DNA from: a virus
Lineage: Duplodnaviria > Heunggongvirae > Uroviricota > Caudoviricetes
Length of the DNA stretch: 50,755 nt
Reading direction: 5' to 3' (one strand)
IMG/VR virus record: IMGVR_UViG_2908959467_000003
Coordinates: 1 to 50,755 of that record
A model generated the notes under the pieces. The model had not been told where the DNA came from. It ran no database searches and saw nothing but the letters and a program-made list of their open reading frames with translations. Below are positions 23,245-47,948 of the stretch, one piece after another. Every line of letters starts with the position of its first letter. The stretch's first letter is position 1. A program made the position numbers and the translations under genes.

Positions 23245-23551
23245 CTTCTACTCCGGCTTTTTTAGCAGCGAAGCGTTTGATAAGCGAACCAATCGAGTCA
23301 GTACCGATATAGCCGATGAACACGCTCGTTATATAAGCGAGATTGCTACTTAGTCCTGCGAAGTCGAGAAGGTCCCGAATGAACCAGGCGATAATGGCGC
23401 ACATCGTTGCGTCGATTACTGTTTTTGTAAACGCACCGCCATTATATCTGCCACGAAGGTACGCCATTGCAAACGCAAGGATTGCCCCGATGCCTTGTTC
23501 CTTTGCCGCGAGAATGGCGGCTAACAGGTCATGTTTTTCTGGCATCTTCAT
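23228..23551 (-). CDS. S: Holin/antiholin, lambda S-type (107 aa)
   Basis: [34 protein letters not shown].. with the dual-start Met1-Lys2-Met3 motif. Confidence 0.9.
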
Positions 23552-23840
23552 GTCTTACCCCCAATAAGGGGATTTGCTCTATTTAATTAGGAATAAGGTC
23601 GATTACTGATAGAACAAATCCAGGCTACTGTGTTTAGTAATCAGATTTGTTCGTGACCGATATGCACGGGCAAAACGGCATGAGGTTGTTAGCGCAACCT
23701 CCTGCCACCCGCTTTCACGAAGCCAGCCATTGAGCTGGTTTTCTTTTATGCAAAGCACACCGCACCGTAGCCACAGCGGATAAGGTGATTATTTTTGTCT
23801 GTCTGGTATTTGGTTTGATGTGCTTTCAGAAAGGCCGTGC

Positions 23841-23877
23841 TTAAAACGCAAAAAGCCCCGAGCTATTAACTCAGGGC
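23841..23877 (-). terminator. tR'-like terminator downstream of the late promoter
   Basis: Minus-strand GCCCUGAG-UUAAUAG-CUCGGGGC followed by UUUUUGCGUUUU. Confidence 0.55.
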
Positions 23878-23913
23878 TTTATTTAACGAGTGCATTTATC
23901 CATCGTTGAGTCA

Positions 23914-23942
23914 AATTTACCCAACTTTATTCAAAAAGTCAA
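23914..23942 (-). promoter_or_regulatory. Late promoter PR'-like (-35 TTGACT, 17-bp spacer, -10 TAAATT)
   Basis: Minus strand reads TTGACTTTTTGAATAAAGTTGGGTAAATT, as in recalled lambda PR'; just downstream of Q. Confidence 0.6.
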
Positions 23943-23984
23943 TATTATGCCGTTAATATGTTGCCATCCGTGGCAATCATGCTG

Positions 23985-24608
23985 CTAACGTGTGACCGCG
24001 TTCAAAATGTTGTCTGCGATTGACTCTTCTTTGTGGCATTGCACCACCAGTGCGTCATACAGCGGCTTAACAGTGCGTGACCAGGTGGGTTGAGTAAGGT
24101 TTGGGATTAGCATCGTTACAGCGCGATATGCGGCGCTTGCTGGCATTCTTGAATAGCCGACACCTTTGCATCTTCCGCATTCTTTCTCAACAACTCTCCC
24201 CCACAGCTCTGTTTTGGCAATATCAACCGCACGGCCTGTACCGTGGCAATCTCTGCATCTTGCGCCCGGCGTCGCGGCACTACGGCAATAATCCGCATAA
24301 GCGAATGTTGCGAGCACTTGCAGTACCTTTGCCTTAGTATTTCCTTCGAGCTTTGCCACACCACGGTATTTCCCCGATACCTTGTGTGCAAATTGCATCA
24401 GATAGTTGATAGCCTTTTGTTTGTCGTTCTGGCTGAGTTCGTGCTTACCACAGAATGCAGCCATTCCGAATCCGGCCTGTGATTGTGCCATCCCCATAGC
24501 AGCCATCACATCAGTACCGGAAAGAGAGTCAGAAGCCGTGGCCCGTGGTGAGTCGCTCATCATCGGGCTTTTTGGCGAATGAAATTTAGCTACGCTTTCG
24601 AGTCTCAT
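23985..24608 (-). CDS. Q: Late antiterminator Q, lambda-type (207 aa)
   Basis: [44 protein letters not shown].. matches recalled lambda Q. Confidence 0.9.
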
Positions 24609-25270
24609 GAGCCTTCTCCCTGTACCTGAATCAATGTGAGGTTTCCGCAGAACACTGCGCCGGTATCGATATACATCTGGTTGGCAAATTTGAGTGGTTT
24701 CACTGCTGGCGTATGACCAAAGATGAACGTGTCCGCGCCTTTGATTTCTTTCACGATCCCGTCTTGTGAGTTGCTGATTCGTTCGCGGTTCCAGATTACC
24801 TGCTGATGATCAACTGGCTTTCCAAACTCGTATTCGTCACAAGGATAATCGGCGTGGCAGATGACATATTTTTTACCTTTGCTCACCAGTTCAATGATTA
24901 ACGGAAGTTCATCTGCTTTATGGGCAAGAGCTTTAGCCAGAATTTCTTTGTCGTAATCGAGATTAAAGAACCAGCCGCCGCCATTAAGCAGCCAGTGATT
25001 GACGTTTCCGCGCTCTGATAAGCCATCAATCATCATTTGCTCATGGTTTCCACGTACAGCTCTGAACCAGTGGAATGTGATTAATTCCAGGCATTCAACG
25101 TTCTCTGTACCGCGATCGACCAAATCGCCAACCGAGATAAGCAGGTCTTTTTTGGTGTCGAATCCTATCGTCTCCAGTTTTTTCATCAGGTTCGTGTAGC
25201 ATCCGTGCAGATCGCCAACTACCCAAATATTTCGGTATTTGCTGCCATCAATTCTTTCGTAATAGCGCAT
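24605..25270 (-). CDS. Ser/Thr protein phosphatase, lambda PPase/NinI-like (221 aa)
   Basis: GDLHGCY..GDLVDRG..GNHE metallophosphatase motifs; start at internal Met 25270. Confidence 0.85.
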
Positions 25271-25454
25271 CTCTTTCACTCCATCCGCGATGAACCATGA
25301 GAACGTCGTTGACGATGGCGTGCATTTTCCCGTCTTTATCATCAACGTATTTTCTGACCGTGCCGCGACTACATTTCAGTCTGCGTGCTACTTCTGTCTG
25401 GTTTCCGTATGCTTCAACGAGCATGTCTGGAATGGTTTTTACTGAGAACGTCAT
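25248..25454 (-). CDS. ninH: NinH-like protein (68 aa)
   Basis: Size and position between NinG and the phosphatase. Confidence 0.75.
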
Positions 25455-26062
25455 GCGGCCTCACTTCTGCTATTTCGCAGGTCTTTGAGTTTCTGTTGGT
25501 ACTCTGCCTTGATCGCCTTGCACTCTTCGATAGTCCAGCGATGGCGGTTATGGTTTGATTCGATTTCGTCTACTGCTTCCTGCCCGATTCGGTTAATCAG
25601 TTCGACGCGATACGGAACGAGATTTCCGCTTTTGTGTTGGTTGCACACCACGCATTGCTTGTGAATATTGCGTTCATCAAATCGGAGTTGAGGTGCCGCA
25701 GCAGTTGTCCGGTAATGTCCGGCATCCCACTGAGCAGACGTGAGCGTTCCGCACGAGATACATGGTAAGTCGCGGTCTCTTTCTCTGATGAAGGCGTTTA
25801 CGGCTTGTTGGGCTTGTTTAATCCAGTAACTGCGGGGCTTTAAGGCGAGTTTTCGAATCTTCAGTTTATCTTTCTGTTTCTGCTCCTCTCGTCGTCGTTT
25901 CTTCTCTGCTGCTTTTTCCGCTTTTTCGCGTTCTTTACTTCGTCGTTCTAGTGCTATCTTGGTTCCACACTCTGGAGAGCACCACCACTGATTAGCGAAT
26001 GCAGGGTGAAACCATTCCTGACATTCATCGTTTTTACATCGTCTTCGCGCTGGTTTAGCCAT
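25451..26062 (-). CDS. ninG: NinG/Rap-like recombination protein (203 aa)
   Basis: N-terminal Cys cluster ([17 protein letters not shown]), basic K/R/E-rich linker, lambda-like position. Confidence 0.8.
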
Positions 26063-26231
26063 CGTCTTCTTCCTCGTATATTGAGCTATTCGGATCGCTC
26101 ATCAGTTCTGCGCAGCAGTGCTCACACACGTGAACTTCCAGCACATGCAGCTTCTGACCGCAGTTAGCGCACGTTAAAGCCCGCTCGACGCTTTCTTTCT
26201 GGTATTGAAGGGATTGGGATGGGCTAAGCAT
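26055..26231 (-). CDS. ninF: NinF-like protein (58 aa)
   Basis: [40 protein letters not shown].. zinc-ribbon; start at internal Met. Confidence 0.7.
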
Positions 26232-26667
26232 GGCTTTCACCATTAAAAAGTCGCTTGTAAGCATCAATGTCTCGTTTTGCTTCACCAAGCTTTCGTCTTA
26301 ATTCCATGTTTTCTGATTCAAGCTTTTCCATGTCTTGCTGGTATCGATCGCGGTGTTCTTTCCATGCTTTTTGATACGCCTTCATGTATGTCATGTTGGC
26401 CTTTCTCTTTGCCTGACGAACTGCGTGGTGGTTTTTCACAAACCAGTCAGGGTCGTTAAATGCTGCTCTGGCGCATGTATACCAATAATTTGTTGCCTCC
26501 CTGTTTAGCCAATAAATACTGATAAATGGCAACCGGATAGACACCATTTTTCGTTGTGACTCTTTCTCGCCAAACATGTGGCCTTTTTTGATGCTAAGTC
26601 CAAATCCAGGTTGAATTAAAAGCATTGTCATTTCCTCGCACGATGTCTTAGCCACCGGATATCCCAC
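26224..26667 (-). CDS. Hypothetical protein between ninE and ninF (up to 147 aa; start uncertain), possibly YbcN-like
   Basis: ORF at a position that is empty in lambda; similarity to DLP12 YbcN is recalled, not verified. Confidence 0.35.
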
Positions 26668-26804
26668 AGGTGAGCCGTGTAGTTGAAGGTTTTTACGTCA
26701 GATTCTTTTGGGATTGGCTTGCGTTTATTTCTGGAGCGTTTCGTTGGAAGGTATTTGCAGTTTTCACAGATTATGTCGGTGATACTTCGTCGCTGTCTCG
26801 CCAC
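26628..26804 (-). CDS. ninE: NinE-like protein (58 aa, GTG start)
   Basis: Manual translation (V)[57 protein letters not shown]; AAGGAGG 4 nt upstream of GTG; missed by ATG-only logic. Confidence 0.6.
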
Positions 26805-26944
26805 ACGTCCTCCTTTTCCTGCGGTAGTGGTAACACCCCTGTTGGTGTTCTTTCACACCGGAGACACCATCGATTCCAGTAAGGTTGCCCGGGTCGAAAG
26901 CGATCGCCTTCCTTTCGCTCTCCACATCGATAACAGTGCTTCAT
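26771..26944 (-). CDS. ninD: NinD-like zinc-ribbon protein (57 aa)
   Basis: [31 protein letters not shown]; ATG overlaps the methyltransferase stop (ATGA). Confidence 0.5.
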
Positions 26945-27531
26945 GCGATCACCATTTTGCATGGTTTAATCGCCATGCCGGTAGCCAGTTCAAAATCGGA
27001 GTCGCACTGATTGCCCCACATATCCCACCCGGTCACTTTGTCGCGGCTAAATAACTCACAGCGCGGCACGTCGCCAAGCAACTTAGCTAACATGTCTCTT
27101 ACGATCGGTGGTTTTGCACTGTGCTCCATTCTCGGTGCGGTAAAGTGCTGGCATATGGAAGCGTCCATTCTCTCAGGCAACCGCCCTCGAACAGCAAACA
27201 AGCAATCCTCGCTATTTGCCCTGGTCATATGCCCCATTCCGATCGCACTGTTTCCTTTGTGCTTATTGGTTTTATGCCAGGTAAAGCCTTTCATAGTCAT
27301 CAACCTGAATCCCCACGCCTCAACTACCTTTAGCGCTTCGGCTGGCTGTGTCGGCACCCACCACATCGCTAACAAGCAAGATTCTGGATCCGCTAAATCC
27401 CATACTGGCAGTCGGCAAATGTCCTGAACATTCATAACATCGTATTTATGTCCAGCACCGCGATTGCCATCGTTGGCTTTGTCGCGATATTGCCAAGGCG
27501 GATCTGCGTAAATAAGTCGGTATTTGTTCAT
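26941..27531 (-). CDS. DNA N6-adenine methyltransferase, MT-A70 family (196 aa)
   Basis: N-terminal ..[10 protein letters not shown].. (DPPW catalytic motif); nin-region position. Confidence 0.8.
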
Positions 27532-27968
27532 TCAGTTTTATCTCCCCATCTCGCTTTCCACTCCAGAGCCAGTCGCGCTTCGTCTGACCACTTAACGCCA
27601 TGTTCTGTACCGAATGCCTGTATAAGCTCTAATAGCTCCGCAAATTCGCTTACACGCATCCTGCTGGTTGACTGTCCTATTACCACAAAGCCATTCCCGG
27701 CAAGGTTAGGAACAACGTCCTGCTGCTTTAATGCTGCGGTAAACACACACTTCCAGCTTCCTGCATCCAGCCAGCGACCATGCCATTCAACCTGACGCGA
27801 AACGTCACCAAGGCAAGCCCAAAGCTTCCGATTTTGGTCTAAGCTGCGGTTGCGCTCCTGAATGGTTACTACGATTGGTTTGGTTGGGTCTGGAAGGATT
27901 TGCTGGATGGCTTGAATGGCGTTCTGCTGATGGATGGGGCTTCTTAGTTCAAACGTTAGTTTCCTCAT
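27528..27968 (-). CDS. ninB: NinB recombination protein (146 aa)
   Basis: MRKLTFELRSPIHQQNAIQAIQQILPDPTKPIVVTIQERNRSLDQNRKLWACLGDVS.. matches recalled lambda NinB. Confidence 0.85.
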   Translation of the reverse strand: MRKLTFELRSPIHQQNAIQAIQQILPDPTKPIVVTIQERNRSLDQNRKLWACLGDVSRQVEWHGRWLDAGSWKCVFTAALKQQDVVPNLAGNGFVVIGQSTSRMRVSEFAELLELIQAFGTEHGVKWSDEARLALEWKARWGDKTE

Positions 27969-28185
27969 GGGATGAACTCCAGTGTGTGATGTTAAATTCC
28001 CATTTAATTACCTTTGCATACCCAATTTTGAACCCATCAATACCTATCCACCGCTTGCCACTCCAATAAGCTGTACCACTTTGCTTGAAATGATGTGGAT
28101 GCTTAGATTGAGTGGTCACTGTTACAGGTAAATATGGCTTCGGGTATTCCCCATTTCCTGGATAACCAGATTTAATTCTGCTCAT
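27949..28185 (-). CDS. Hypothetical protein (78 aa)
   Basis: ORF between helicase and ninB; no motif recognised. Confidence 0.35.
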   Translation of the reverse strand: MSRIKSGYPGNGEYPKPYLPVTVTTQSKHPHHFKQSGTAYWSGKRWIGIDGFKIGYAKVIKWEFNITHWSSSHEETNV

Positions 28186-28508
28186 TGATACCCTCTCTCA
28201 CTTAATCGCCTCCACGCTTCGTTAAACTCTTCTCGAGTTGCGCCGGATTTTCTTTCTTCAAACATCATGCATTCGCTGATGTCTCCCCATGACTTTGGTC
28301 GCTTTTCAGCAAACAGATCATCCCATTCGAATACCCAGCGGCCTGATTTTCGGTAGTGGTAAATGGTCAGCCATGTTGTGCAGTTCGCTGGATACCCATA
28401 GAGAACTTCGACTTTTTGATCACGGTCTTTATGCTTTTTCAGCAGGATAAAGCCAGCAACCAGCGAAGCTCCGGCAAGAATGATGATTGGAATTTGCCAG
28501 TCAGCCAC
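28182..28508 (-). CDS. Hypothetical membrane-anchored protein (108 aa)
   Basis: N-terminal hydrophobic helix (IPIIILAGASLVAGFILL); lambda ren-like position but unlike Ren. Confidence 0.4.
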   Translation of the reverse strand: MADWQIPIIILAGASLVAGFILLKKHKDRDQKVEVLYGYPANCTTWLTIYHYRKSGRWVFEWDDLFAEKRPKSWGDISECMMFEERKSGATREEFNEAWRRLSERGYQ

Positions 28509-28583
28509 ACTTCCCTCTCCCCCAAATAAAAAGGCCTGCGATTACCAGCAGGCCTGTTATTAGCTCAGTGATGTAGATGGTCA

Positions 28584-30020
28584 TCAGAATCCTCCTTTCT
28601 TCTTGGACTGCGGTTCCTCGCGTTCACGGCGGCGCATTTCAGCAGACTGTTGGTCTGTGTCATAAATAGCGCCATTTGCCTGAATGCAATACACCGTGCC
28701 GGTATTGCCATGACGATTGAGACGAAGGATTAGTTCGGTTTCACCAGGTGGAACACTGTCATCAAAAGCACCTTCACGATGGATCCCCACCCAATAATCG
28801 CAATCCTGTTCAATCTGCCCTGTATCTCGTGAGTCACTTGGTAATGGGCGTTTATTGGTTCGACTTTCCAGTGCGCGGTTAAGCTGCGTCAGAAGCACAA
28901 CAACGCAATCAAGCTCTTTGGCAAGGCTCTTCAGTCCTTTGGTGATCATGCCGTAGGCAAGGTCGTTACGATCGGCCTTTTCAGCGGTCATTAGTGTCAG
29001 GTAATCGACAAGAATCATGCCAACGCATCCTTTTTCTCGTTTGATTCGACGGCTTTCGCTGACGATTTGAGCCAGAGATAATCCCGGCGTGTCGTCGATG
29101 TAAAGCAGGTCGATTTCACTCAAGCGATTGGCTGTTTCGATCGCCCTGTTGAAGTCACCATCGTAATCACCCTGATAGCCGTCATCAGCGTCATTTGTCG
29201 CCGGAAGGTAAAAAATATTCGGGTTAACACCAGACTTCTGCCCTACCAGTTTTTCCAGTATCTGATCACCTGGCATTTCAAGGCTGAACATCAAAGCGGG
29301 CTTTTTCTCATGCACTGCGCAATTGATTGCCATCTGGCTGTATAGCGTCGTTTTCCCCATCTTAGGGCGAGCGCCAATGACAAACAGAGAGCCTTTCACC
29401 AGACCTTTCGGTGACAGCATCCTGTCCAGCGATGGGATCCCTGTGCTCATTCCCCGTTGTTCGCCTGATGGGTCAAATCGCTTCTCAAGGTCGCTAACCC
29501 AGTCTTCCATGACCTCACCAAATGAACGAAGGCCGCGACGCGATCCGGTTTTTGCATGGTCTGTCAGTTGCGTGAAAATCGACTGAATAGCTTCGTACTT
29601 CTGCGTTGCAGTCATTCCGTTGCGGGAATAGAGCAATTCCGTCGCTTCAGTCATGCGGTTGATGGCGTAGCGTTCCATTGCGGTTTCACGAACCTGCATT
29701 GCATAGGCAACGATGTTTGCTGCGCTTGGCGTGTTCTTTGCGATCTCAGCGATATAAGCAAAACCGCCAACAGACACAGTTAACGATTTACGCTCCAGTT
29801 CATCGAAAAGCGTCAGCCCATCTACTGGCTTTTGCTCCCGGTGCATTCTGGTTATTTCTTCGAAAAGGATTTTGTGTGGTCGGCTGTAAAATGAATCAGG
29901 CTTCAGCATCGCCAGAACTTTCCGGACGCGCTCACTGCTGTCATCATCCAGAAGCAATCCACCAATCACCGCCTGCTCTGCCTCGATGCTATGGGGCGGC
30001 GCATAAAAATTATCGGTCAT
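28584..30020 (-). CDS. Replicative DNA helicase, DnaB-like (P22 gene 12-type, 478 aa)
   Basis: Walker A GARPKMGKTTL and DnaB N-terminal region; ATG at 30020 with GAGGGTGA RBS (track start at 30035 is GTG). Confidence 0.85.
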   Translation of the reverse strand: MTDNFYAPPHSIEAEQAVIGGLLLDDDSSERVRKVLAMLKPDSFYSRPHKILFEEITRMHREQKPVDGLTLFDELERKSLTVSVGGFAYIAEIAKNTPSAANIVAYAMQVRETAMERYAINRMTEATELLYSRNGMTATQKYEAIQSIFTQLTDHAKTGSRRGLRSFGEVMEDWVSDLEKRFDPSGEQRGMSTGIPSLDRMLSPKGLVKGSLFVIGARPKMGKTTLYSQMAINCAVHEKKPALMFSLEMPGDQILEKLVGQKSGVNPNIFYLPATNDADDGYQGDYDGDFNRAIETANRLSEIDLLYIDDTPGLSLAQIVSESRRIKREKGCVGMILVDYLTLMTAEKADRNDLAYGMITKGLKSLAKELDCVVVLLTQLNRALESRTNKRPLPSDSRDTGQIEQDCDYWVGIHREGAFDDSVPPGETELILRLNRHGNTGTVYCIQANGAIYDTDQQSAEMRRREREEPQSKKKGGF

Positions 30021-30900
30021 CGTGTTCACCCTCACGAACTTTCAGGTAGGTATTATCGTTAAGCAGGAAATCAAATCCCTTTTTGTGCCAGACGGTTCCG
30101 CGTTGATGGTTTGGACGCTCTTCGAACATCCATCGGCAATTTTCGCCTACGTAGCTCAAATAATTTCTCCAGTCCTGCATCGTGAACCCATGCCCGTCAA
30201 GCTGGCGGGTTATCACTCCGGCTTTGCGCCAGAACGTTCGGATCTGGTTTTTACGCTTGTCATTCAGTGCGCGGATTTTTGGCGCTTCAGGAAGGATTTC
30301 GTGGTAAGCATCGACAACATCCTGACAGCTAACGGAAGGTTTTTTCTTGTCAGACTTTTTGTCTGCTGCGGTACTCTCTAATACGTCAGTATTAGAGATA
30401 TTATTTATATTATTGTTTATGGACAACCGTTGGACAACCGTTGGACAATCTCCGCTGAGAGGCGCGCCATTACTGGTGTTTGCGTTGGACAACCGTTGGA
30501 CAACCGTTGGACAATTTTTTGCCTGAAAATCGTCATATTTAACGATTGTAAACAGGCTAAATTTCTTCCCCATCGAGCAAATATTAAGCATCCCTTTCGA
30601 CTCAAAAGTCCGTAATAAGCTCCGAACTTTGTTGTCGGGGATGAATGTTTCTCTGACCAGCGACGGGCGTCCAGTTATCATCTGACCGCGATCAACAGTT
30701 ATCGTACCGATATCCGTATTGACGACAGTAGATTCGTGATTAGCCTTGAGGATTAAGTGAAGCCAAAGATGTACTGCCTGAGAGTCCTTATAGAGCCTGC
30801 TGTCCATAAACTGGCGGTGTATAGAGACATACCCCATACTGGATGCCTCCTGATGTTGTACAGGGTTATGCCTGTAATCAGCTAACTTAACGACGCCCAT
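30010..30900 (-). CDS. Replication initiator, lambda O / P22 gene 18-like (296 aa), contains ori
   Basis: Position upstream of helicase; the gene encodes the iteron cluster (protein repeat CPTVVQRLSN x2). Confidence 0.7.
   Translation of the reverse strand: MGVVKLADYRHNPVQHQEASSMGYVSIHRQFMDSRLYKDSQAVHLWLHLILKANHESTVVNTDIGTITVDRGQMITGRPSLVRETFIPDNKVRSLLRTFESKGMLNICSMGKKFSLFTIVKYDDFQAKNCPTVVQRLSNANTSNGAPLSGDCPTVVQRLSINNNINNISNTDVLESTAADKKSDKKKPSVSCQDVVDAYHEILPEAPKIRALNDKRKNQIRTFWRKAGVITRQLDGHGFTMQDWRNYLSYVGENCRWMFEERPNHQRGTVWHKKGFDFLLNDNTYLKVREGEHDDR
30385..30514. repeat. Origin-like iteron array: 11-bp TTGGACAACCG repeats in two triplets plus adjacent AT-rich tract
   Basis: ggacaaccgttggacaaccgttggacaa (30421..30448) and the same again at 30485..30514; AT-rich 30385..30420. 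Confidence 0.7.
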
Positions 30901-31048
30901 GTTTCACTCCTGCTTTGGCTAGTCTGTAAACACCAACAAGGCGCTCTGCGAACGCCCTGTTATTTGCTGCGGCTACCACTAATCCCTCAGGTGAATCAGG
31001 GTGTCGAATCTCTTCTTTTTCCTGGTATTTCTTACGACGTTTTGTCAT
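30887..31048 (-). CDS. Possible small basic protein (53 aa) between cII and O
   Basis: ATG at 31048 with AGGAG 6 nt upstream; MTKRRKKYQEKEEIRHPDSPEGLVVAAANNRAFAERLVGVYRLAKAGVKHGRR; overlaps O start by 14 nt. Confidence 0.25.
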   Translation of the reverse strand: MTKRRKKYQEKEEIRHPDSPEGLVVAAANNRAFAERLVGVYRLAKAGVKHGRR

Positions 31049-31082
31049 AATTACTCCTGTGGATTGATCCAGTCTTTCTACA

Positions 31083-31361
31083 TCAGGCCTCGAAGAATTC
31101 GCCGTTCTTCGGGGCTTTTTCTTTTGTCAGCATTCTGGCTACTTTCTTAGCCAGTTCCGCCAACTCCTCGTCTTCAACACCCCATTCAAGAACAGCCAGA
31201 AGCATTCCCATTTTTGGGATGAAGCTATCTTTCCATCGAGAAATTTGCGATTCATTAATCCCTAACGCGTCGGCAACCTTTCGCTGACCACGTACAGCAA
31301 TTCGATTCAGGATGTTGCTTGTAATTGCATTCGCTTTCTTGCGAGTACTTGTAAGTTCCAT
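31083..31361 (-). CDS. cII: CII-like transcriptional activator (92 aa)
   Basis: ..GINESQISRWKDSFIPKMGMLLAVLEWGV.. matches the recalled lambda CII core; start at internal Met. Confidence 0.8.
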   Translation of the reverse strand: MELTSTRKKANAITSNILNRIAVRGQRKVADALGINESQISRWKDSFIPKMGMLLAVLEWGVEDEELAELAKKVARMLTKEKAPKNGEFFEA

Positions 31362-31419
31362 ATGTAAGTATTTCCTTAACAAATAAGAAGTTATGCGCAT
31401 CAACTTATGCGCGTTGTAT

Positions 31420-31463
31420 TCCCGCATTTCGGCGGGAATGAGGACCATGACTGTTAAAGAGCG
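31420..31463 (-). promoter_or_regulatory. nutR-like site (boxA CGCTCTTTAACA + boxB hairpin)
   Basis: Minus strand CGCTCTTTAACA then UCCCGCCGAAAUGCGGGA hairpin, between cro and cII. Confidence 0.6.
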
Positions 31464-31469
31464 GTGTTA

Positions 31470-31664
31470 CTATTTGTTTTTCTTGTTGCTTGGGAAAGGA
31501 CGAACTTCCTCTCCAATCACACTGCCATCAGGCTTTACCGTAACCATGATGTTACGGCCTGCCAGAATGGCCTTGCTGATAGCGCACTGGATTACACCAA
31601 AGTCACTGGCTGCTTTAGCCTGTCCATGGATTTTGGCGTAATCGGCAAGTGTCATTCGAATCAT
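31470..31664 (-). CDS. cro: Cro-like repressor (64 aa)
   Basis: ..[42 protein letters not shown] resembles lambda Cro; ATG 31664 with GGAGAG RBS. Confidence 0.75.
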
Positions 31665-31695
31665 ATGCACTCTCCGTTATTAACCATGAACAAAG

Positions 31696-31735
31696 AATAC
31701 TACAGGTATTCAAAGCAATCAATACTCAGGGTATT
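31696..31735. promoter_or_regulatory. OR operator sites: two 15-bp palindromes AATAC-N5-GTATT in the cro/cI divergent promoter region
   Basis: AATACTACAGGTATT (31696..31710) and AATACTCAGGGTATT (31721..31735), centres 25 bp apart. Confidence 0.55.
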
Positions 31736-31770
31736 TTTAGTTTAAGTACCTTAGCTATTAGAATTAAGCT

Positions 31771-32487
31771 ATGGAAAATAAAAAATCACTGACGACAGAA
31801 CAGCTGGAAGACGCTAAGCGGCTTAAGGCTTTGTATGAGTCAAAAAAGAAAGAATTGGGGATAACCCAATACTCAATCGCTGATGAACTGGGTATCACCC
31901 AAGGAGCGGTAGGGCATTATCTTAATGGCAGAAATGCGCTAAACGTTGAGGTTGCATCTGGTTTTGCACGATTGTTGCAAGTCTCAATTGCTGATTTTAG
32001 CCAGTCAATTGCTGCCAAGGTTGCAGAACAGGCAGAAAGCCTTAAGAGCGATGCCAACGTAAGGTATGCAGGGGAATACAGAGCAGGAAAGAGGTATCCG
32101 GTGTTAAGCAGTATCCAGGCTGGCTCGTGGTGTGAAGCATGCGAACCATACACCATTAAAGACATAGATGTTTGGCTTGAGTCTGACGCGCATATTCAAG
32201 GTAATGCGTTTTGGCTTAAAGTGGAAGGTGATTCAATGACGGCACCGGTTGGGTTAAGCATTCCAGAGGGAACATTCGTTCTTTTCGATACCGGAAGGGA
32301 GGCGATCAACGGCAGCTTGGTCATAGCAAAACTTTCTGACTCTAACGAAGCAACATTCAAGAAGCTGATAATCGACGGCGGGAATAAATACCTCAAGGGA
32401 CTTAACCCTGCATGGCCTCTCGTGCCAATCAATGGAAACTGCAAGATTATAGGCGTTGCAATTGAGACAAAACTAAGGCTGGTTTGA
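31771..32487 (+). CDS. cI: CI-type prophage repressor with S24 peptidase domain (238 aa)
   Basis: N-terminal HTH (ITQYSIADELGITQGAVGHYLNG), C-terminal autocleavage domain (..VEGDSM..KK..). Confidence 0.85.
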   Translation: MENKKSLTTEQLEDAKRLKALYESKKKELGITQYSIADELGITQGAVGHYLNGRNALNVEVASGFARLLQVSIADFSQSIAAKVAEQAESLKSDANVRYAGEYRAGKRYPVLSSIQAGSWCEACEPYTIKDIDVWLESDAHIQGNAFWLKVEGDSMTAPVGLSIPEGTFVLFDTGREAINGSLVIAKLSDSNEATFKKLIIDGGNKYLKGLNPAWPLVPINGNCKIIGVAIETKLRLV

Positions 32488-32506
32488 TCACGCAAGGGGG
32501 ACGCTT

Positions 32507-34246: not shown

Positions 34247-34341
34247 GCACTGTGTATTCATTCCAACGAGTGAATACACGGAGCAATGTCGCTCGTAACT
34301 AAACAGGAGCCGACTTGTTCTGATTATTGGAAATCTTCTTT

Positions 34342-34368
34342 GCCCTCCAGTGTGAGGGCAATTTTTTT
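34342..34368 (+). terminator. Rho-independent terminator within the PL operon
   Basis: GCCCTC-CAGTGT-GAGGGC followed by AATTTTTTT; preceded by a second 9-bp-stem hairpin at 34252..34279. Confidence 0.5.
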
Positions 34369-34380
34369 GATGGAGGATAT

Positions 34381-35349
34381 ATGAGTGAAGTAACAGATTT
34401 AGTTGTTATTGAAAAATCAAATGCAATGACTGTATTTCAGTCTGCCGACCAGATTGAAGAAATCCTTCAAAAGGTTGAACGTGAAGTTATGTCCTTTGTG
34501 CCTGATATCACCACGGCAAAGGGCAGAAAGGAGATCGCTTCTCTGGCGTATAAAGTTGCGCAGACGAAAACATATCTCGATGGTCTTGGCAAAGACCTTG
34601 TTGCTGAACTGAAGGAAATTCCAAAGCTAATTGATGCCAACCGCAAGACAGTGCGCGATCGCCTTGATGAACTGAAAGCCAAGGCGCGCCAGCCTCTTAC
34701 TGATTATGAGGAAGAACAGGCGCTGATTAAAGCCGAAGAAGAAGCTAAGGCAGCAGCTGAAGCTCTCGCAAAGCAAATTGAGTCTGACCATGAAATAGCG
34801 ATTTTGATGGATCGCGAATTTGACCGCCAAAGAGAAGAGGCAAGACTCAAAGCGGAGCAGGAAAAGCGAGAGCATGAAGAACGCTTAAAAAGAGAAGCTG
34901 AAGAGAAAGCCAGAGCAGAAGCCGAAGCAAAGGCAAAAGCCGAAATTGAAGCAGCAGCAAGGCGAGAAGCAGAAGCTAAGGCCGCAGCGGAACGTGCAGA
35001 GCGTGAACGCATTGAAGCCGAGCAACGAGCACAGCGCGAAGCAAAAGAGGCGGCGGAACGAGCTGAAAGAGAAAAGCATGCGGCAATTGAAGCAGAACGC
35101 AGAAAAGCACAGGAGGAGGCTGAACGAATCCGTCGCGAGGCTGAAGCAAAAGAGCAAGCCAGAATAGCAGAAGAAAAAAGAATCAAGGACGAAGAAGAGC
35201 GTAGAGCAAAAGATAAAGCTCACCGGAAAGAAGTAAATAACAAAATACTTGCTGACCTTATCAAGGTTGGTGCATCAGAAGATGTTGCTAAAAATATCAT
35301 AACAGCCATCGTAAAAGGCGAAGTATTCGCAACAAAAATAACCTACTAA
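34381..35349 (+). CDS. Charged coiled-coil protein (322 aa), unknown function
   Basis: ATG 34381 with GGAGGA RBS; central approximately 150 aa of A/E/K/R repeats; globular ends. Confidence 0.5.
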   Translation: MSEVTDLVVIEKSNAMTVFQSADQIEEILQKVEREVMSFVPDITTAKGRKEIASLAYKVAQTKTYLDGLGKDLVAELKEIPKLIDANRKTVRDRLDELKAKARQPLTDYEEEQALIKAEEEAKAAAEALAKQIESDHEIAILMDREFDRQREEARLKAEQEKREHEERLKREAEEKARAEAEAKAKAEIEAAARREAEAKAAAERAERERIEAEQRAQREAKEAAERAEREKHAAIEAERRKAQEEAERIRREAEAKEQARIAEEKRIKDEEERRAKDKAHRKEVNNKILADLIKVGASEDVAKNIITAIVKGEVFATKITY

Positions 35350-39705: not shown

Positions 39706-39873
39706 ATGCACTTCCGAGTCACAGGTGAATGGAATGGAGAACCATTCAACAGAGTTATCGAAGCAGAGAACATCAACGACTGCTATGACCACTGGATGAT
39801 ATGGGCGCAGATAGCACATGCAGACGTAACCAATATTCGAATTGAAGAACTGAAAGAACACCAAGCCGCCTGA
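39706..39873 (+). CDS. Small hypothetical protein (55 aa) bracketed by terminators
   Basis: ATG with GGAGATGA RBS. Confidence 0.35.
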   Translation: MHFRVTGEWNGEPFNRVIEAENINDCYDHWMIWAQIAHADVTNIRIEELKEHQAA

Positions 39874-40220: not shown

Positions 40221-40380
40221 TGAACACTTCTCACTAAGTCCAATTAATTCCATAACTCACTGTTTTAACTGATATCATCTCCTTATACTCGTCCAGCAAA
40301 GTACCATTATTTCTAATGGAATCTATACATCTTTGCGTATAACATTGTGTATAACTGAGTTCGATCTTTTTTCTATACAC

Positions 40381-41556
40381 ATGCTGCTATCTGACATCCA
40401 AATAAAAAGAGCAAAACCGAAGGACAAACCCTATACGCTTAACGATGGTATGGGGCTATCACTCCTGATCGACACAGCGGGCAGTAAAGGCTGGCGTTTT
40501 CGCTATCGCTTTGCAGGTAAGCCTAAGATGATTTCCTTTGGCGTATATGGCGATGTGTCGTTGGCACAGGCACGTACCAAACGTGATGAAGCGCGTTCGA
40601 TGTTAGCCAAAGGGATAAACCCAAGTGAAGCCAGAAAAGCAGATAAGATTGCTTTGCAGTTCGCGCATGAGAACAGCTTTGAGTCTGTGGCCAGAGAATG
40701 GCACTCATCGAAAAAAGCCACCTGGTCAGAGGGTTATGCAAAAGAGGTTCTCAATTGTATGGAAAAGGATATTTTTCCTTTTATCGGCCAGCGCCCAATT
40801 GAGCAGATTGAACCATTAGAACTGCTAACCGTCCTGCAAAAAATAGAGAAAAGAGGTGCGCTAGAGCAAACCAGTAAGATCCGCCGCCGCTGTGGTGAAG
40901 TGCTTCGTTATGCTGTTGCCACTGGTAGAGCAAAGTATAATTTTGCACCCGATTTAGCTATCGCACTCAACAAACCTAAAACCCAACACTTCCCGTTCCT
41001 GACTGAAAGCGAGTTGCCCGAGTTCGTTAATGCTCTGGATAACTATCAGGGCAGTTTAGTTACCAAATACGCCACGCAGCTGTTGATGCTAACAGGCGTG
41101 CGAACAATTGAACTACGTGCAGCGGAATGGGCTGAGTTTGATTTAGATAATGCCTTATGGGAGATCCCCAAAGAACGGATGAAGAAACGCCGCCCCCATC
41201 TGGTTCCGTTATCAACTCAGGCGATCAATATCCTGAAAAAGCTGCAAGAAATAACAGGGAATTACAGCCTCGTTTTCCCTGGCCGAAATGACGTCAGGAA
41301 ACCAATGAGCGAAGCCAGCATCAACAAAGTGATAAAACTACTGGGTTATCACGGTCGGTTAACGGGTCACGGTTTCAGGCATACCATGAGCACCATCTTG
41401 CATGAGCATGGGTTTGAAAGTGCCTGGATTGAAATGCAGCTTGCGCATGTTGATAAGAACTCTATTCGAGGTACTTACAATCATGCGCAATATATTAAAG
41501 ATCGACAAGTAATGATGGAATGGTACGCTAGCTTATTAAATACGACCTGCTATTAA
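40381..41556 (+). CDS. Tyrosine integrase, P4 family (391 aa)
   Basis: MLLSDIQIKRAKPKDKPYTLNDGMGL.., ..RRRCGEVLRYAVATGRAKYNFAPDLA.., ..HGFRHTMST..; paralogous to the int at 1..1158. Confidence 0.85.
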   Translation: MLLSDIQIKRAKPKDKPYTLNDGMGLSLLIDTAGSKGWRFRYRFAGKPKMISFGVYGDVSLAQARTKRDEARSMLAKGINPSEARKADKIALQFAHENSFESVAREWHSSKKATWSEGYAKEVLNCMEKDIFPFIGQRPIEQIEPLELLTVLQKIEKRGALEQTSKIRRRCGEVLRYAVATGRAKYNFAPDLAIALNKPKTQHFPFLTESELPEFVNALDNYQGSLVTKYATQLLMLTGVRTIELRAAEWAEFDLDNALWEIPKERMKKRRPHLVPLSTQAINILKKLQEITGNYSLVFPGRNDVRKPMSEASINKVIKLLGYHGRLTGHGFRHTMSTILHEHGFESAWIEMQLAHVDKNSIRGTYNHAQYIKDRQVMMEWYASLLNTTCY

Positions 41557-42486
41557 ATCCAGCATGAAACAAATATGGTGAGTAATTTGATACTGTTTGT
41601 TTTTTGGCAACCCAGGGAAATGCCTTACAGTTGGTTGACTATTGTAATAATAATAGTTAAGACCAATGTTGCTGCCAAACTGGGTTGGATGTTGGGGAAC
41701 AAGATTTGTAATTTGATCTGAAACATCTAAAAATTTTGCAGTAACATTTGAACTTCCTCGTTGCGTGTTGCTTGATACAAAATGACGAATCCAAACTGTA
41801 TTCGCTTGTAAATTCTTGAACACCAAATGTGCGGCAACAGCAGAAGGTTGACCACCTCCAAGATCTAGTACCTGGCCAGTAATTGTATAATCGCCAAATC
41901 CTAAGTAATTTTGTCCCACGAATTGATGTGCGTGCGTGAAAAGTTCCGGCCCATTATAATCAGCATTTTTTGCTAACTTTCTAAAGTTATCGCTAATAAT
42001 AATTAACTTCGACAAAGGAAGAAGAGCGCACTGATTAGGAAGCATTTTATTATTTAAAACAACATGATAACTAATCAATTGATTTGTCGCCAACAACTGA
42101 ATATCAGAGTTGGATAATGATGGATTATCATATAGAAGTGCAACTCGTCTATTTAAGTTAGCATTCAACCAATTATTAATATCATTAATCGTTGTATTGG
42201 GCTGAATAAGATATCCAGAGATGATATTGTTTTTATTTGTTAATACACTTGATAAATTTTGATTTAAAGTTAAGACGTTATTGTGTGAAGAAAAATCTTC
42301 CTGATAAGGATTAAGGATAACAATTATGTCAGAATTCCAAACATTTAAACATGTTAATAAATTTCTCGTATTGACGTTAATTGGTTCTAAAATTGGTAGC
42401 AGACCATTTAGGCTAACTCCCTTCGCAACGAGGTCCCTAAGGCATAATAACTCTGTACTTCTCGCATACAAATATGGGCTATACAT
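41536..42486 (-). CDS. Cargo protein B (316 aa), unknown function; second gene of an AT-rich two-gene operon
   Basis: N/S/L-rich low-GC ORF, 21 nt after gene A; no recognised motif; 3' end overlaps the convergent int by 21 bp. Confidence 0.6.
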   Translation of the reverse strand: MYSPYLYARSTELLCLRDLVAKGVSLNGLLPILEPINVNTRNLLTCLNVWNSDIIVILNPYQEDFSSHNNVLTLNQNLSSVLTNKNNIISGYLIQPNTTINDINNWLNANLNRRVALLYDNPSLSNSDIQLLATNQLISYHVVLNNKMLPNQCALLPLSKLIIISDNFRKLAKNADYNGPELFTHAHQFVGQNYLGFGDYTITGQVLDLGGGQPSAVAAHLVFKNLQANTVWIRHFVSSNTQRGSSNVTAKFLDVSDQITNLVPQHPTQFGSNIGLNYYYYNSQPTVRHFPGLPKNKQYQITHHICFMLDLIAGRI

Positions 42487-42507
42487 AACTTACAACTCCT
42501 GAGGATA

Positions 42508-43389
42508 TCAACAAATTTTAATTTTTACATCCATCAAATTCATGATGAATTCTTTTTGCTTTCTTGATAATGGTGTTGCATAACCTAAAACACGTAAACA
42601 TGCTGGAAGAGAATAAATATAATCCAAAAAAACTTTGTCGTTACATCTTTTTTTCATAGCAGAGATAAAGTATTTATTTGCTATGTTTAATGGCATCTGC
42701 ATGAATATCTCTTTACAATATTCATAAACCAATCCATTAGGCATATTTATTTTAGTTGAAGTGTAATCTTCTATTATAGCTAAGAACTCTTCCTTTCTAA
42801 GAACTGAAAACAAGCTGTCACTTTTAATATAATCAATATTTGAATCTGCCTCCTTAATGACACTCAATTGATCTTTTTTATTCAAAACCATAACTCCCAC
42901 TCTGGGGAGATTTAAAGCACAATATTTACTTGCATACTCTGGATGTGTAACTATATACACTTTATCAAAAACATCCAAATAATCAGGGGCTTGAGTAATC
43001 AACCTTTTTGGTGAATCATACTCTGTCTTAATCTCGTAAGCTGTAGACGTACCATTAAACACCGCAACATCCACTATAGAGTTTTTAATTGGTAACTCTA
43101 TGGACGACGAACTTGTTTTTGGGCTGTGCTTACCGAATATTATTTTATTGACAAGTGCTGTCTTATAAACATATTCATTTCTATAATTCAGACGCAAAAA
43201 ATCATATAATGATGTAAATAAATCCCTTAGTGAAATCTCATGTTCATTATTATCATTGTTTGAAAACAGTGTTTCATAGCAGTAAGAATCAAAACTCCCA
43301 AATAAATCCGAAATATCCTTACCTTTTGCTAAGGATGAAAAAATGGGGCGACGGAAAAATTTAGCATATTCCTTTTTATTATGACTCAT
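42508..43389 (-). CDS. Cargo protein A (293 aa), putative PD-(D/E)xK nuclease-fold protein
   Basis: ..SIELPIKNSIVDVAVFNGTSTAYEIKTEYD.. gives the E / hydrophobic-D / E-x-K arrangement; AT-rich. Confidence 0.6.
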   Translation of the reverse strand: MSHNKKEYAKFFRRPIFSSLAKGKDISDLFGSFDSYCYETLFSNNDNNEHEISLRDLFTSLYDFLRLNYRNEYVYKTALVNKIIFGKHSPKTSSSSIELPIKNSIVDVAVFNGTSTAYEIKTEYDSPKRLITQAPDYLDVFDKVYIVTHPEYASKYCALNLPRVGVMVLNKKDQLSVIKEADSNIDYIKSDSLFSVLRKEEFLAIIEDYTSTKINMPNGLVYEYCKEIFMQMPLNIANKYFISAMKKRCNDKVFLDYIYSLPACLRVLGYATPLSRKQKEFIMNLMDVKIKIC

Positions 43390-44069
43390 TACTCATACTC
43401 TATAAACATCATGCAATTTGATAAGTTATGACGAATTCTCACCATCCAGTTACTACCTGTACATACTAATCAAAAAAAACGAGTACGCAAGATACGAAAG
43501 TACTTTTCTTGTTCACCAGTTAGCTTACCTTGATCCTCACCAGCGACTGGAAGATAGGTAGCAGTATATGTGGAAACCTTCCCCTAGCTAGGTCTACAAA
43601 CGTAGTTTGGGCATTTAGGCTCCACGATTCACGGTTTGACACGGCCTGATATCTGCACATTCGTTTTGATATGCAGCAATCGTGAAAAAGGGAAAATATA
43701 CGCTCGACAGACCAAAACGGCACTACACCGCACCCGCCTGCGGTTTTCATATCACTAAAAATTTTCAGCCTGGATTTTTTACAAACGATACCGCCAGTCC
43801 GTGCCAGTCCTCGAGATGTACTGCGATACAGGAACTGAAAAGAATGAAAAGAAATTCATTTTTTTTCAGTTTTACTGTCCGTCGAATCTATGGCCTGAAT
43901 ACGCAACTCTATGATATTAAATGGATAATTAATTTTAGGTGTGTGATTTTATGAAGGTTTGTGAAACATGAAGAAGATAACCAGTTGAAAAATAATAATT
44001 TTATGACCGTATAAACTGAAATCCTGTGTTCAGGTTCCGGGAACAGATCGGCCATTCCCGACGCATACT

Positions 44070-44342
44070 TTACCCATTCTTTTGCGCAGCCAGCAGCAAC
44101 TTTAAAGCCTTTTCCCGTTCCTCGGGTGGAATTGCATCAATCAGCTCTTTAACCCTTCCCTGCCCGTTCAGCGCGCTTGGACTAACGGAATGGGAGAAAG
44201 CAACATTCATCACAAACGAGTGACCGCACTCCACATTAGAGCAATAGCAGTACACATCGTACAGTTGTGGGTGTTTCCTGTTTGTTTTACCTATCCGTGC
44301 TACTGCCTGACATGTGGGGCAGTACATTCTCATCATCTTCAT
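44070..44342 (-). CDS. ogr: Ogr/Delta-family zinc-finger late-gene activator (90 aa; start may be an internal Met)
   Basis: C-x2-C...C-x4-C pattern (MYCPTCQ..CYCSNVEC) as in P2 Ogr / P4 Delta. Confidence 0.7.
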   Translation of the reverse strand: MKMMRMYCPTCQAVARIGKTNRKHPQLYDVYCYCSNVECGHSFVMNVAFSHSVSPSALNGQGRVKELIDAIPPEEREKALKLLLAAQKNG

Positions 44343-44408
44343 CGTTCTGTGCCCTATACTGTTGCCCGCCAGAAGAAGGGATTTGGATCCCTACCTCTTG
44401 TTCTGAAC

Positions 44409-44598
44409 GTGTAACACTGGTAACACGTGTAACGCTATTGATTTAAAAGGATTTAATCTGTTACCAGTTAGCAAAATCAAGAGGTAACGCGTGGTAACAC
44501 ACCATTTTTTGTTACCTCTGTTACCAGTCAGTATTTTTGACTGGTAACACTGAAGAACCGCATCAGTAACGGGTGTTACCTCTGTTACCAGTGTTACC
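44409..44598. repeat. Iteron cluster: at least 12 copies of (G)GTAACAC / GTGTTACC in about 190 bp, P4 crr/ori-like
   Basis: Repeats read directly; motif TGTTACC is one base from the recalled P4 alpha-binding octamer TGTTCACC. Confidence 0.65.
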
Positions 44599-44624
44599 TC
44601 ATAAAAATAAGACTCACGCGATAA

Positions 44625-47312
44625 TCACTCAGGTTCAGCGCTTCCCAGTACCTGTGTATTGAACTGGTACACACGTTTAAGCCCTATTTCTGGCAGGCGA
44701 ATGCTGTTTTGCGTCCGGCCATCTTCACCGGGTTTCAGCCAGCCCGCGTCCACACACAACCTGGCCACCTTACGCGAGTCAAATCCCTTACAGATCTCCT
44801 TCCAGCCTGACGGGAGAACGTAGAACGTCACAACCGGCTCTGTCACGTTGTCTCCTTTATCGACTTTTCTGAATCCCATCATTGAAACAGGCCGGTTCCT
44901 GTCGTCATTCCAGTCAGCAAACCGACTGAACTGATTACGCGTCATGAAGTCCCGAACCTGTTCAAGTGCCGCTTTATCTTCCTGATTAGCTGTATGGCCC
45001 CGGTCAGCCATCCATGCAGCCAGACAGCTTTGAGCGGCACGAAAGGCCTCTCCCTCCGGCCATCCTGTGATGCCCGCTTTTGTGGCCAGCTCCCCGGCCA
45101 TCGCAACCAGAGCAAAACGGGTAACAGCCCGGCCAACCTGATTCCCGGCATTTTCCGGCGTCAGCCTTCGGGTATACTCTTTCAATAAGGCTTTCGCCTG
45201 ACTGGTCAGTTCCGGCAGATCAGCGGTCAGGCAATACAGCCAGTCGCGGAATGGTGCACCATGATAATGCGCTACGTGCTGCTCAAGATGCTCAGCCAGG
45301 GTTTTCCCGCTACTGAAGCCATGAAGTTCTTCAAACACGCCATACTTGCCCGAATCGCTTGGGATCTGGATCATTCTGACCTCAACCCCGGCATACGTAC
45401 GTTCCCCGGCGCTTGCCGCATGCTCTACCAGTGACAGTTCCCCGGTAGACAGAAACAACAGATTCCAGCGGTTGGTTTCCCTTACCGAACCATCTGTTCT
45501 GGCTCTGGCTTTGCCCTGCCCGTTAGCCAGCATATAAGCGATATTCCCCGCCTCCCTGCCGTCAACCTCCCGGATTTCATCCAGCATCAGCGTGGCATCA
45601 TTGCGGCGGCTCGCCGTTCCTTCTAAGGCATTCCCCGTCGCCCGCCACGTATGCCAGAAATCTGTTCCACCACATACTGATGCAGCCACTTTCATCGTCG
45701 TGGTTTTACCGTCTGTGGATTCCCCTTTGAGGTGATAACCTCCACCGCCGATACCAACCAGTTTCAGAAGGGGGGCAGCAAATGCCAGACTCACCGCAAA
45801 GGCAAGACGGGCATTCTTTATGCAATAACGGCCTATATTTTCACGCCAGCCCTCTGATGTGCCGCTGACACGAAAATCACGCCCCTGCACACTCGATGTT
45901 TGTAAGATGACTGACTGGGCTTCGCGCCCTATCACTTCATCCTGGAGAACGTAAACCCCGCCGTGCCAGCCAGTTTTATTCACACAGGTTACTTTTCTGT
46001 CCGGTTTACACAGCGAGATATATTCCATCAGGAATGCTCTGGCCATGCCATTAATGTTGATGTAAGAAAGCCCGTTAACCAGCAGAACGCGGCGCAGTTC
46101 TTCCCCGCTACCGCCCAGCATCTCCATCGGCATTGCCCATTTACGGCTGTTTCCGTTGGTATCTTCCCATTCCAGCAAACGCCCGTAATTACTTCCATCA
46201 GCATCACTGGTGATTGCCGTCACCCGCAACGGACTGCAAATTTTGATATTACGTATCTCTGTATCACCATCAGACTTATTAACCAGCTTGTCGTACCACA
46301 AATATTCTTTTGTCAGCCGGAACCCTTCTGGTAAACGGGTCTGCCCTTTGCCATGCAGCGTCATTTCTTCACGAAAGGCATCTCTCGCCCGTTCTTTCCC
46401 CACTTCCTGCCGATAATCATCCCAGTCAGCCTTATGGCGTACCGGAGGGAGCGTTACCCAGCCATCCACCGCTTTGGCGGCTTTCTCTGCCTGAATACGC
46501 CCGGTGTTTTCTTTGCCGTCAGCCAGATCATTATCTCCGGCCAGAATGATCCGAGTTTCCGGCCAGCGTTTTCGGATCTGCTCCGTCACCTTCAGTAAAT
46601 TGGTGGCAGCGACAGCCGCCACGATCCATCCTTCAGTCAGCAGACTGACGGTAAGCGCCGTGGCAAAACCCTCAGTGATAATCACCTGTTCAGGTGTTTC
46701 AGCGGGTATATCGGTCAGGGCAATGAATGCGCCAGACAGCTGGCTACCGGGCAGCAGACTTTTATCCCCGTCAGGATTGATAAGCTGGCCACCAGTAATA
46801 TTCCCGGAAATATCCGTCAAAGGCAGCAGTAATGAACCGGTGGAAAATGTTATTCCGGCCAGATTCAAAGGCTGTGACAGCAAGGGAAGTGAATACCCGT
46901 GTAAGCCCTTATTTGTCAGATAGACCGGCTCACCATTGCAGGACTGCTGTCTGAGTCTGGTATATCGCTCCGCGCCCGCTTCTTTTCCTGCGGCCTTTTT
47001 CCTGGCTGGCAATGCGGGCTTCTCCTGTATTTCTGGTAATGCAAGCGCCTCAGATACCATCCCGGCGACTTCTTTTATCTTTCTTCCTGTCACCAGACGA
47101 ACCAGATCAAGACCATCGCCATGACCGCACTGATTACAAAACCACGTCCCTCGCCCCGCTTTATCGTCCAGTCGAAAACGATCTTTTCCACCACAGGCAG
47201 GGCAAGCCCCATGATGTCCTGCGGACGGTACTTTAATACCTAATGCTGACAGGATATAAGGCCAGCGCCCAATTGCAGCTCCGGAAATCGTGGATACAGA
47301 CGGTGTTTTCAC
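44625..47312 (-). CDS. Primase-helicase, P4 alpha-type (895 aa)
   Basis: N-terminal zinc-binding primase motif (CPACGGKDRFRLDD..WFCNQCGHGDG), central P-loop (GESTDGKTTT). Confidence 0.85.
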   Translation of the reverse strand: MKTPSVSTISGAAIGRWPYILSALGIKVPSAGHHGACPACGGKDRFRLDDKAGRGTWFCNQCGHGDGLDLVRLVTGRKIKEVAGMVSEALALPEIQEKPALPARKKAAGKEAGAERYTRLRQQSCNGEPVYLTNKGLHGYSLPLLSQPLNLAGITFSTGSLLLPLTDISGNITGGQLINPDGDKSLLPGSQLSGAFIALTDIPAETPEQVIITEGFATALTVSLLTEGWIVAAVAATNLLKVTEQIRKRWPETRIILAGDNDLADGKENTGRIQAEKAAKAVDGWVTLPPVRHKADWDDYRQEVGKERARDAFREEMTLHGKGQTRLPEGFRLTKEYLWYDKLVNKSDGDTEIRNIKICSPLRVTAITSDADGSNYGRLLEWEDTNGNSRKWAMPMEMLGGSGEELRRVLLVNGLSYININGMARAFLMEYISLCKPDRKVTCVNKTGWHGGVYVLQDEVIGREAQSVILQTSSVQGRDFRVSGTSEGWRENIGRYCIKNARLAFAVSLAFAAPLLKLVGIGGGGYHLKGESTDGKTTTMKVAASVCGGTDFWHTWRATGNALEGTASRRNDATLMLDEIREVDGREAGNIAYMLANGQGKARARTDGSVRETNRWNLLFLSTGELSLVEHAASAGERTYAGVEVRMIQIPSDSGKYGVFEELHGFSSGKTLAEHLEQHVAHYHGAPFRDWLYCLTADLPELTSQAKALLKEYTRRLTPENAGNQVGRAVTRFALVAMAGELATKAGITGWPEGEAFRAAQSCLAAWMADRGHTANQEDKAALEQVRDFMTRNQFSRFADWNDDRNRPVSMMGFRKVDKGDNVTEPVVTFYVLPSGWKEICKGFDSRKVARLCVDAGWLKPGEDGRTQNSIRLPEIGLKRVYQFNTQVLGSAEPE

Positions 47313-47719: not shown

Positions 47720-47948
47720 CGCGCATCACTCCCTTAATTGTGCTGGTTTCCTTAACAACGCCATCCAGTTGTTCGGCAATACAGGCCACTAAAGCCGCAG
47801 CGCCTTCCGCTGAAACAGTTCTCGCTCCATTCACTGTGGGCACGGACAAGACCTCTGCAAGAAACTCACTGGCCAGTGCCGCCCGTAACAGACGACTCTC
47901 CCCCTGTTCACTCAATATGCAGCCTTGCTTAAAATTCATGGATTTCAT
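47712..47948 (-). CDS. Hypothetical protein (78 aa)
   Basis: Operon member; no motif. Confidence 0.4.
   Translation of the reverse strand: MKSMNFKQGCILSEQGESRLLRAALASEFLAEVLSVPTVNGARTVSAEGAAALVACIAEQLDGVVKETSTIKGVMRDE

Follow-up and report, generated by a model that had tools for sequence, protein, structure and literature searches.

Several relatives of the phage enzyme described here have already been characterised, and the substrate of the clade to which they belong is disputed between GATC sites in DNA and 16S rRNA. For Serratia phage BZS1 p32, a plasmid from a dam− host became MboI-resistant and DpnI-sensitive, which identifies GATC as the methylated site (PMC7556043). M.EfaBMDam of the conjugative element Tn1549 is cited in the same study as GATC-specific. 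Table 3 of PMC6602927 lists M.EcoGV, from the O104:H4 Stx2 phage, as a GATC "Dam homolog"; according to PMC10810198 it has high similarity to the phiPA8 enzyme and, if overproduced, methylates GATC in vivo. The phiPA8 enzyme itself, M.EcoPA8orf6770P, was found by Gong et al. to have weak, non-specific activity alone, whereas together with the small protein PNB-2 it raises spontaneous prophage induction (PMC10810198). The phiPA8 holoenzyme showed a more than 13-fold preference for RNA over DNA and preferred 16S rRNA in 30S subunits, although the study did not map which RNA base is modified (PMC10810198).

The locus compared with these systems lies in a window of 50,755 nucleotides, most of which is a P22-like E. 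coli prophage with a P22-type head-binding tailspike, ERF, a CII homologue, an S24-family repressor and a tyrosine integrase (40333-41556). On the minus strand at 26941-27531 is a coding sequence of 196 amino acids for an MT-A70 family (beta-class) N6-adenine methyltransferase, supported by its open reading frame, its Pfam, PHROG and fold matches, and the annotation of identical DNA as WP_023157010.1. The protein matches Pfam PF05063 (MT-A70) with 88.4 bits against a cutoff of 23.9 (E 6.7e-25); this match, the only one to Pfam in the protein, spans residues 4-175 and covers profile positions 1-172 of 172. It also matches phrog_359, "DNA methyltransferase" (E 2e-106), and the PADLOC type II methyltransferase model MTase_II (E 4e-70), and no NCBIfam model was found for it. 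The four opposite-strand ORFs that overlap the gene (27011-27427, 26683-27054, 27448-27795 and 27121-27333) have no Pfam match, and a search of 23500-32500 against Rfam returned no RNA family.

The catalytic motif IV, D10-P11-P12-W13, is encoded by GAT CCG CCT TGG at 27493-27504 on the minus strand; an earlier note, made from the DNA letters, had recognised a DPPW motif in this gene. Across 47 homologues D10, P11 and W13 never vary, and the conservation of P12 is at least 90%. Three further blocks, HSxKP, ELFxR and WGN, show little or no variation in alignments of 12 and of 47 homologues, and are represented here by HSAKP (137-141), ELFSR (159-163) and WGN (172-174). The order of the motifs is the permuted one of the beta class, with DPPW N-terminal and the cofactor-binding motifs C-terminal. 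As read from these features, the protein is a small single-domain beta-class MT-A70 enzyme with no separate target-recognition domain, and its predicted activity is SAM-dependent N6 methylation of adenine. Beta-class enzymes are thought to work as dimers (PMC7544214), and by analogy the enzyme is likely to be a homodimer.

A sequence search of solved structures returned a ciliate MTA1-type "MT-a70 family protein" (E 1e-10) and METTL3 (E 4e-6). An AlphaFold2 model built with 47 homologues as input reached a pLDDT of 79 and a pTM of 0.81, with low-confidence segments at residues 17-28, 98-102 and 193-196, and the best Foldseek matches of the model in the PDB were the catalytic domains of METTL3 and Tetrahymena MTA1 (E ~1e-13, TM 0.66-0.70). 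The modelled fold is thus the Rossmann-like one of the METTL3/MTA1 type. The METTL3-METTL14 and ciliate MTA1 complexes share this fold and the DPPW active site, with sequence E values of 1e-10 to 1e-6, but at only 21-24% identity; they are eukaryotic heteromers with accessory subunits and extra domains, whereas the phage protein is a bare catalytic domain. Profile, fold and genomic context together bear out the identification as an N6-adenine methyltransferase that the earlier note had proposed.

The possibility that the gene is a decayed or silent passenger encoding an inactive protein was weighed against its sequence and distribution. For many prophage methyltransferases no methylation is seen in lysogens (PMC4659465, PMC5778455), IS629 interrupts some of the Stx-phage copies (PMC10810198), and half-length matches occur among the phage relatives. 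Here, however, the ORF is full-length and all family-invariant residues are intact. In comparisons with relatives, 52-61% of codons differ at the third position and 13-24% at the second; synonymous sites are saturated against every available relative, and selection was therefore judged from these per-codon-position differences, not from a formal dN/dS. Second-position differences far below those at the third, with synonymous saturation, indicate the purifying selection expected of a functional protein. Among the 5426 complete E. coli genomes, 38 carry the gene at 95% identity or more, always as a single chromosomal copy; each of the 38 spans 80% or more of the length of the gene, and the 15 that were listed are full-length and annotated as coding. 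An inactive passenger is accordingly an extremely improbable reading.

The gene is an ordinary accessory gene in temperate phages of enterobacteria and is annotated as a matter of routine. E. coli A2 (NZ_CP028772) carries it at 100% DNA identity; there PGAP names the product "MT-A70 family methyltransferase" (WP_023157010.1) and places it between "recombination protein NinB" and "protein NinD"; the exact protein is therefore already in RefSeq under the same annotation, and annotations of the family in phages go back to epsilon15. The protein database holds more than 1000 relatives across Enterobacterales, under the names "MT-A70 family methyltransferase", "adenine methylase" and "N6-adenosine-specific RNA methylase IME4", and protein-level relatives occur in 517 phage and 176 plasmid records. 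At the DNA level, megablast returned nothing from 50,697 phage records, and phage relatives of the gene are found only at the protein level. The closest of these are in Erwinia phage vB_EhrS_59 (gp65, 82% identity), Salmonella phage epsilon15 (NP_848237.1, 78%), Escherichia phage phiV10 (69%) and the Stx2a-converting phages (64%). The first two proteins are of similar length to ours and come from phages of other hosts. Two genomic positions recur: directly 3′ of ninB, as in our window and in Erwinia phage 59, where gp65 directly follows the ninB homologue, and close to int/xis in the early-left operon, where epsilon15, phiV10 and the Stx phages carry the gene.

In the window the methyltransferase gene sits in a lambda-like nin region, between ninB and ninD, as the earlier note had placed it. 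NinB, the Orf recombination mediator, is encoded upstream at 27528-27968 (PF05772, E 1.8e-53) and NinD downstream at 26771-26944 (PF17466, E 9.5e-39), both on the minus strand; Pfam further identifies NinE, NinF, NinG and NinH downstream. The gene order, all on the minus strand, is DnaB-type helicase, strong terminator-like hairpin, two small ORFs, ninB, methyltransferase, ninD and ninE, followed 3′ of ninE by an ORF of 133-147 amino acids, ninF, ninG, ninH, a Ser/Thr phosphatase gene and a homologue of antiterminator gene Q. Pfam, PHROG and PADLOC searches revealed nothing restriction-like in the neighbouring genes, and the four neighbours scanned against PADLOC gave 0 matches, in agreement with the earlier description of the gene as an orphan with no restriction gene beside it. 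Three small minus-strand ORFs interrupt the similarity of the region to lambda. Two of them, 28182-28508 (108 aa) and 27949-28185 (78 aa), lie between the tR2 segment and ninB, and the third, 26224-26667, lies between ninE and ninF; they match only PHROGs of unknown function (phrog_5903, phrog_29435 and phrog_1511).

The gene is joined to both neighbours by four-nucleotide ATGA overlaps on the minus strand. At 27528-27531 the TGA stop of ninB (ACT GAA TGA) overlaps the ATG start of the methyltransferase gene (ATG AAC), and at 26941-26944 the methyltransferase stop (ATC GCA TGA) overlaps the start of ninD (ATG AAG CAC), the NinD Pfam match beginning at this overlapping Met. Junctions of this kind are typical of lambdoid nin regions (PMC8022706). 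A Shine-Dalgarno-like GGGGAG at 27542-27547 (minus strand), 10 nt 5′ of the methyltransferase ATG and within the 3′ end of ninB, may serve as the ribosome-binding site of the gene, and the overlaps would couple its translation to that of ninB and ninD.

Comparison with phage lambda by blastn placed the limits of the methyltransferase gene at these same junctions. Homology over ninB (91% DNA identity; window 27969-27528, lambda 40643-41084) ends at 27528 and restarts at 26946 (lambda 41948), continuing at 93% identity across ninD-ninE, and blastn found no lambda homology over 26947-27527. In lambda the intervening slot, 41081-41953, is that of ninC. Because lambda homology breaks exactly at both ATGA junctions, we conclude that the methyltransferase gene replaces ninC as a cassette. 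NinC likewise lies between NinB and NinD in lambda, with identical 4-nt overlaps, but is an unrelated PAPS-reductase-like protein of 290 amino acids belonging to another Pfam family, whereas the same slot in the window holds the MT-A70 methyltransferase.

Upstream of the nin genes, at 28532-28555 on the minus strand, is a tR2-like intrinsic terminator, consisting of a hairpin of 8 pairs (6 of them G-C) followed by a T run. The segment that bears it matches lambda 40566-40642, between ren and ninB, at 98.7% identity, and tR2 lies in this part of lambda. A scan of 23500-32500 found 7 promoter-like sites compared with 11.3 in shuffled sequence, and no convincing promoter of its own upstream of the methyltransferase gene. 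From the position of the gene, 3′ of both pR and the tR2-like terminator, we infer that it is expressed in the delayed-early lytic phase in an N-dependent manner and is silent in the lysogen. Transcription from pR would reach it only after loss of the repressor and N-dependent read-through of the terminator, and the enzyme would be made in lytic growth and not in the lysogen. Lysogen silence has likewise been reported for other prophage methyltransferases (PMC5778455, PMC4659465). The earlier suggestion that the enzyme alters host methylation is therefore unlikely to hold for a lysogen, with the gene in a repressed pR operon behind a tR2-like terminator and with no convincing promoter.

As regards what the enzyme would methylate, the three characterised GATC-specific branches bracket the window protein, which shows full-length homology to their members. 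The phiPA8 enzyme, the equivalent of M.EcoGV, is 62-64% identical to it; BZS1 p32 is 44-46% identical and carries a 24-aa insertion between window residues 91 and 92; and the E. faecium copy from a conjugative element of the Tn1549 type is 40-42% identical. BZS1 p32 and M.EfaBMDam belong to the same bacterial MT-A70 clade as the window protein, at 40-46% identity overall, and share the conserved motifs and the orphan state; they differ in the p32 insertion and in the location of the Tn1549 enzyme in a conjugation module. The putative substrate loops (17-28 and 89-102) differ between subgroups, the p32 insertion falling within this part of the protein, and coincide with low-confidence parts of the model. 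Because the three GATC branches enclose the window protein despite their differing loops, GATC is the parsimonious prediction for its target, with the caveat that the specificity is carried over from relatives at just 40-64% identity.

The differing loops could also be read in another way, with the enzyme methylating adenine in some other short motif, or with relaxed specificity, and protecting phage DNA against other restriction systems in the manner of M.EcoGII. The loop sequences are unlike those of the characterised relatives, the protein has just 196 amino acids with no separate target-recognition domain, and prophage methyltransferases without sequence specificity do exist in E. coli (PMC5778455). 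We nevertheless regard a non-GATC specificity as unlikely, since all three bracketing branches are GATC-specific whatever their loops (PMC7556043, PMC6602927) and since M.EcoGII is of another family, while the window protein matches only PF05063. Kinship with M.EcoGII was rejected in a comparison by description: it has 349 amino acids, DPPY, a central target-recognition domain and FxGxG (PMC5778455), compared with 196 amino acids and DPPW here.

A more distinct alternative is that the enzyme methylates RNA, forming m6A in 16S rRNA and tuning host translation and prophage induction, as proposed for M.EcoPA8orf6770P with PNB-2. The identity of 62-64% to the phiPA8 enzyme, the RNA preference of its holoenzyme and the presence of the mRNA methyltransferase METTL3 among the nearest solved folds all favour this reading. 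The phiPA8 work also weighs directly against GATC, as the purified homologue was weakly active on DNA with unmethylated GATC and with PNB-2 preferred 16S rRNA (PMC10810198). That RNA preference, however, required PNB-2, which is encoded directly upstream in phiPA8, whereas the gene directly upstream here is ninB. PNB-2 (143 aa) and PNB-1 from phage PA8 (KP682374) were used as tblastn queries against the whole window and gave best E values of 0.8 and 0.07, respectively, with no homologue, and no convincing homologue of the downstream PA8 genes gp3 and gp4 was found in the window. M.EcoGV and M.EcoPA8orf6770P (PA8 KP682374 gp5) resemble the window protein in having a single MT-A70 domain with DPPW, alignable over residues 2-187, and in being orphan and phage-borne. 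They differ in having a longer, unrelated C-terminal tail: beyond residue ~187 the PNB-2-linked tail is not conserved, and the window protein is 12 aa shorter. Tail-less variants occur without PNB-2 according to the same paper (PMC10810198). The Stx-phage genes also adjoin int in the early-left operon, and the position of the window gene in the nin operon is different. With no PNB-2, no conserved tail and another position, the window gene falls outside the two-subunit phiPA8 system, and the proposal that it is an rRNA methyltransferase of that kind is improbable, although the catalytic subunit may have some latent activity on RNA. A role other than Dam-like methylation could also take the form of methylating RNA (e.g., rRNA), ssDNA or recombination intermediates during lytic growth, perhaps with NinB or NinG in place of PNB-2; this we judge very improbable. 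Elsewhere in the window, a plus-strand ORF of 55 amino acids at 39706-39870 is 93% identical to a small hypothetical protein of Stx phage PA28, encoded two genes upstream of the MT-A70 gene in that phage; here the ORF is near the integrase gene and far from the methyltransferase gene. The PA28 protein is not PNB-2.

Methylation of GATC looks redundant in a Dam+ host. However, in virions of P22, lambda and L the DNA carries less than full GATC methylation, phage L having 65 of its 73 sites methylated (PMC8022706), and a Dam-like enzyme would be useful even in a Dam+ host because Dam leaves virion DNA under-methylated. The best explanation of the locus, which we hold to be probable, is that an orphan beta-class MT-A70 enzyme, encoded by a cassette replacing ninC, expressed in lytic growth and acting as a homodimer, methylates the adenine of GATC in phage DNA, as its three characterised relatives do. 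Host Dam leaves lambda and P22 virion DNA under-methylated, and the phage enzyme would finish the methylation during rapid replication, keeping packaged DNA fully modified and the progeny resistant to methylation-sensitive GATC cutters. The earlier proposal that the enzyme protects phage DNA is plausible in this form, with the characterised relatives pointing to GATC, but probably does not extend to arbitrary restriction systems; and because a Dam+ host already methylates GATC, the likely benefit is a topping up of fast-replicating phage DNA.

The frequency of GATC in the prophage (3317-41556) is low, with 92 sites observed compared with ~200 expected from a Markov model (O/E 0.46), and only CTAG is lower. 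Other E. coli prophages are also GATC-poor (PMC4659465, PMC6602927), and the under-representation neither supports nor refutes GATC specificity. Within its 591 bp the methyltransferase gene has 5 GATC sites, and one of these is in the DPPW codons.

Other features of the window were recorded alongside the methyltransferase. An 11-bp iteron, TGGACAACCGT, occurs in two clusters at 30409-30526 inside the replication-initiator gene (30010-30900), and these clusters are probably the phage origin; on the opposite strand the iteron reads TGTCCAACGGT, a 10/11 match to the phage L iteron TGTCCAACGGA (PMC8022706). In the early-left operon, a plus-strand ORF of 340 amino acids at 34327-35349 with no Pfam match occupies the slot of the TnpB/InsQ gene of the closely related E. 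coli A2 prophage. Beside the integrase gene (40333-41556), a separate P4-like or PICI-like satellite element extends over 41536-50510 on the minus strand, with genes for a primase-helicase (Zn-ribbon, Toprim and DUF927; 44625-47312), an Ash-family protein (47945-48535) and a P2-family major capsid protein (48623-49627), and the presence of the last of these suggests that the satellite forms capsids. At the other end, positions 1-3268 hold a second full-length tyrosine integrase gene (1-1158) and an AT3-SGNH acyltransferase gene (1313-3268), which directly adjoin the P22-type tailspike gene (3317-5473) in an arrangement that looks Sf6-like. The acyltransferase is a candidate O-antigen-modifying enzyme, and the arrangement suggests that this is a module for serotype conversion, or else an element that is tandem or a remnant.

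The methyltransferase locus is an example of how cassettes of the nin region can be exchanged cleanly at ATGA junctions. As a partner-less copy in another operon, it also provides a natural comparison for the disputed substrate of the clade, GATC DNA or 16S rRNA, and could help to show whether the catalytic subunit, when on its own, acts on DNA as a Dam-like enzyme.
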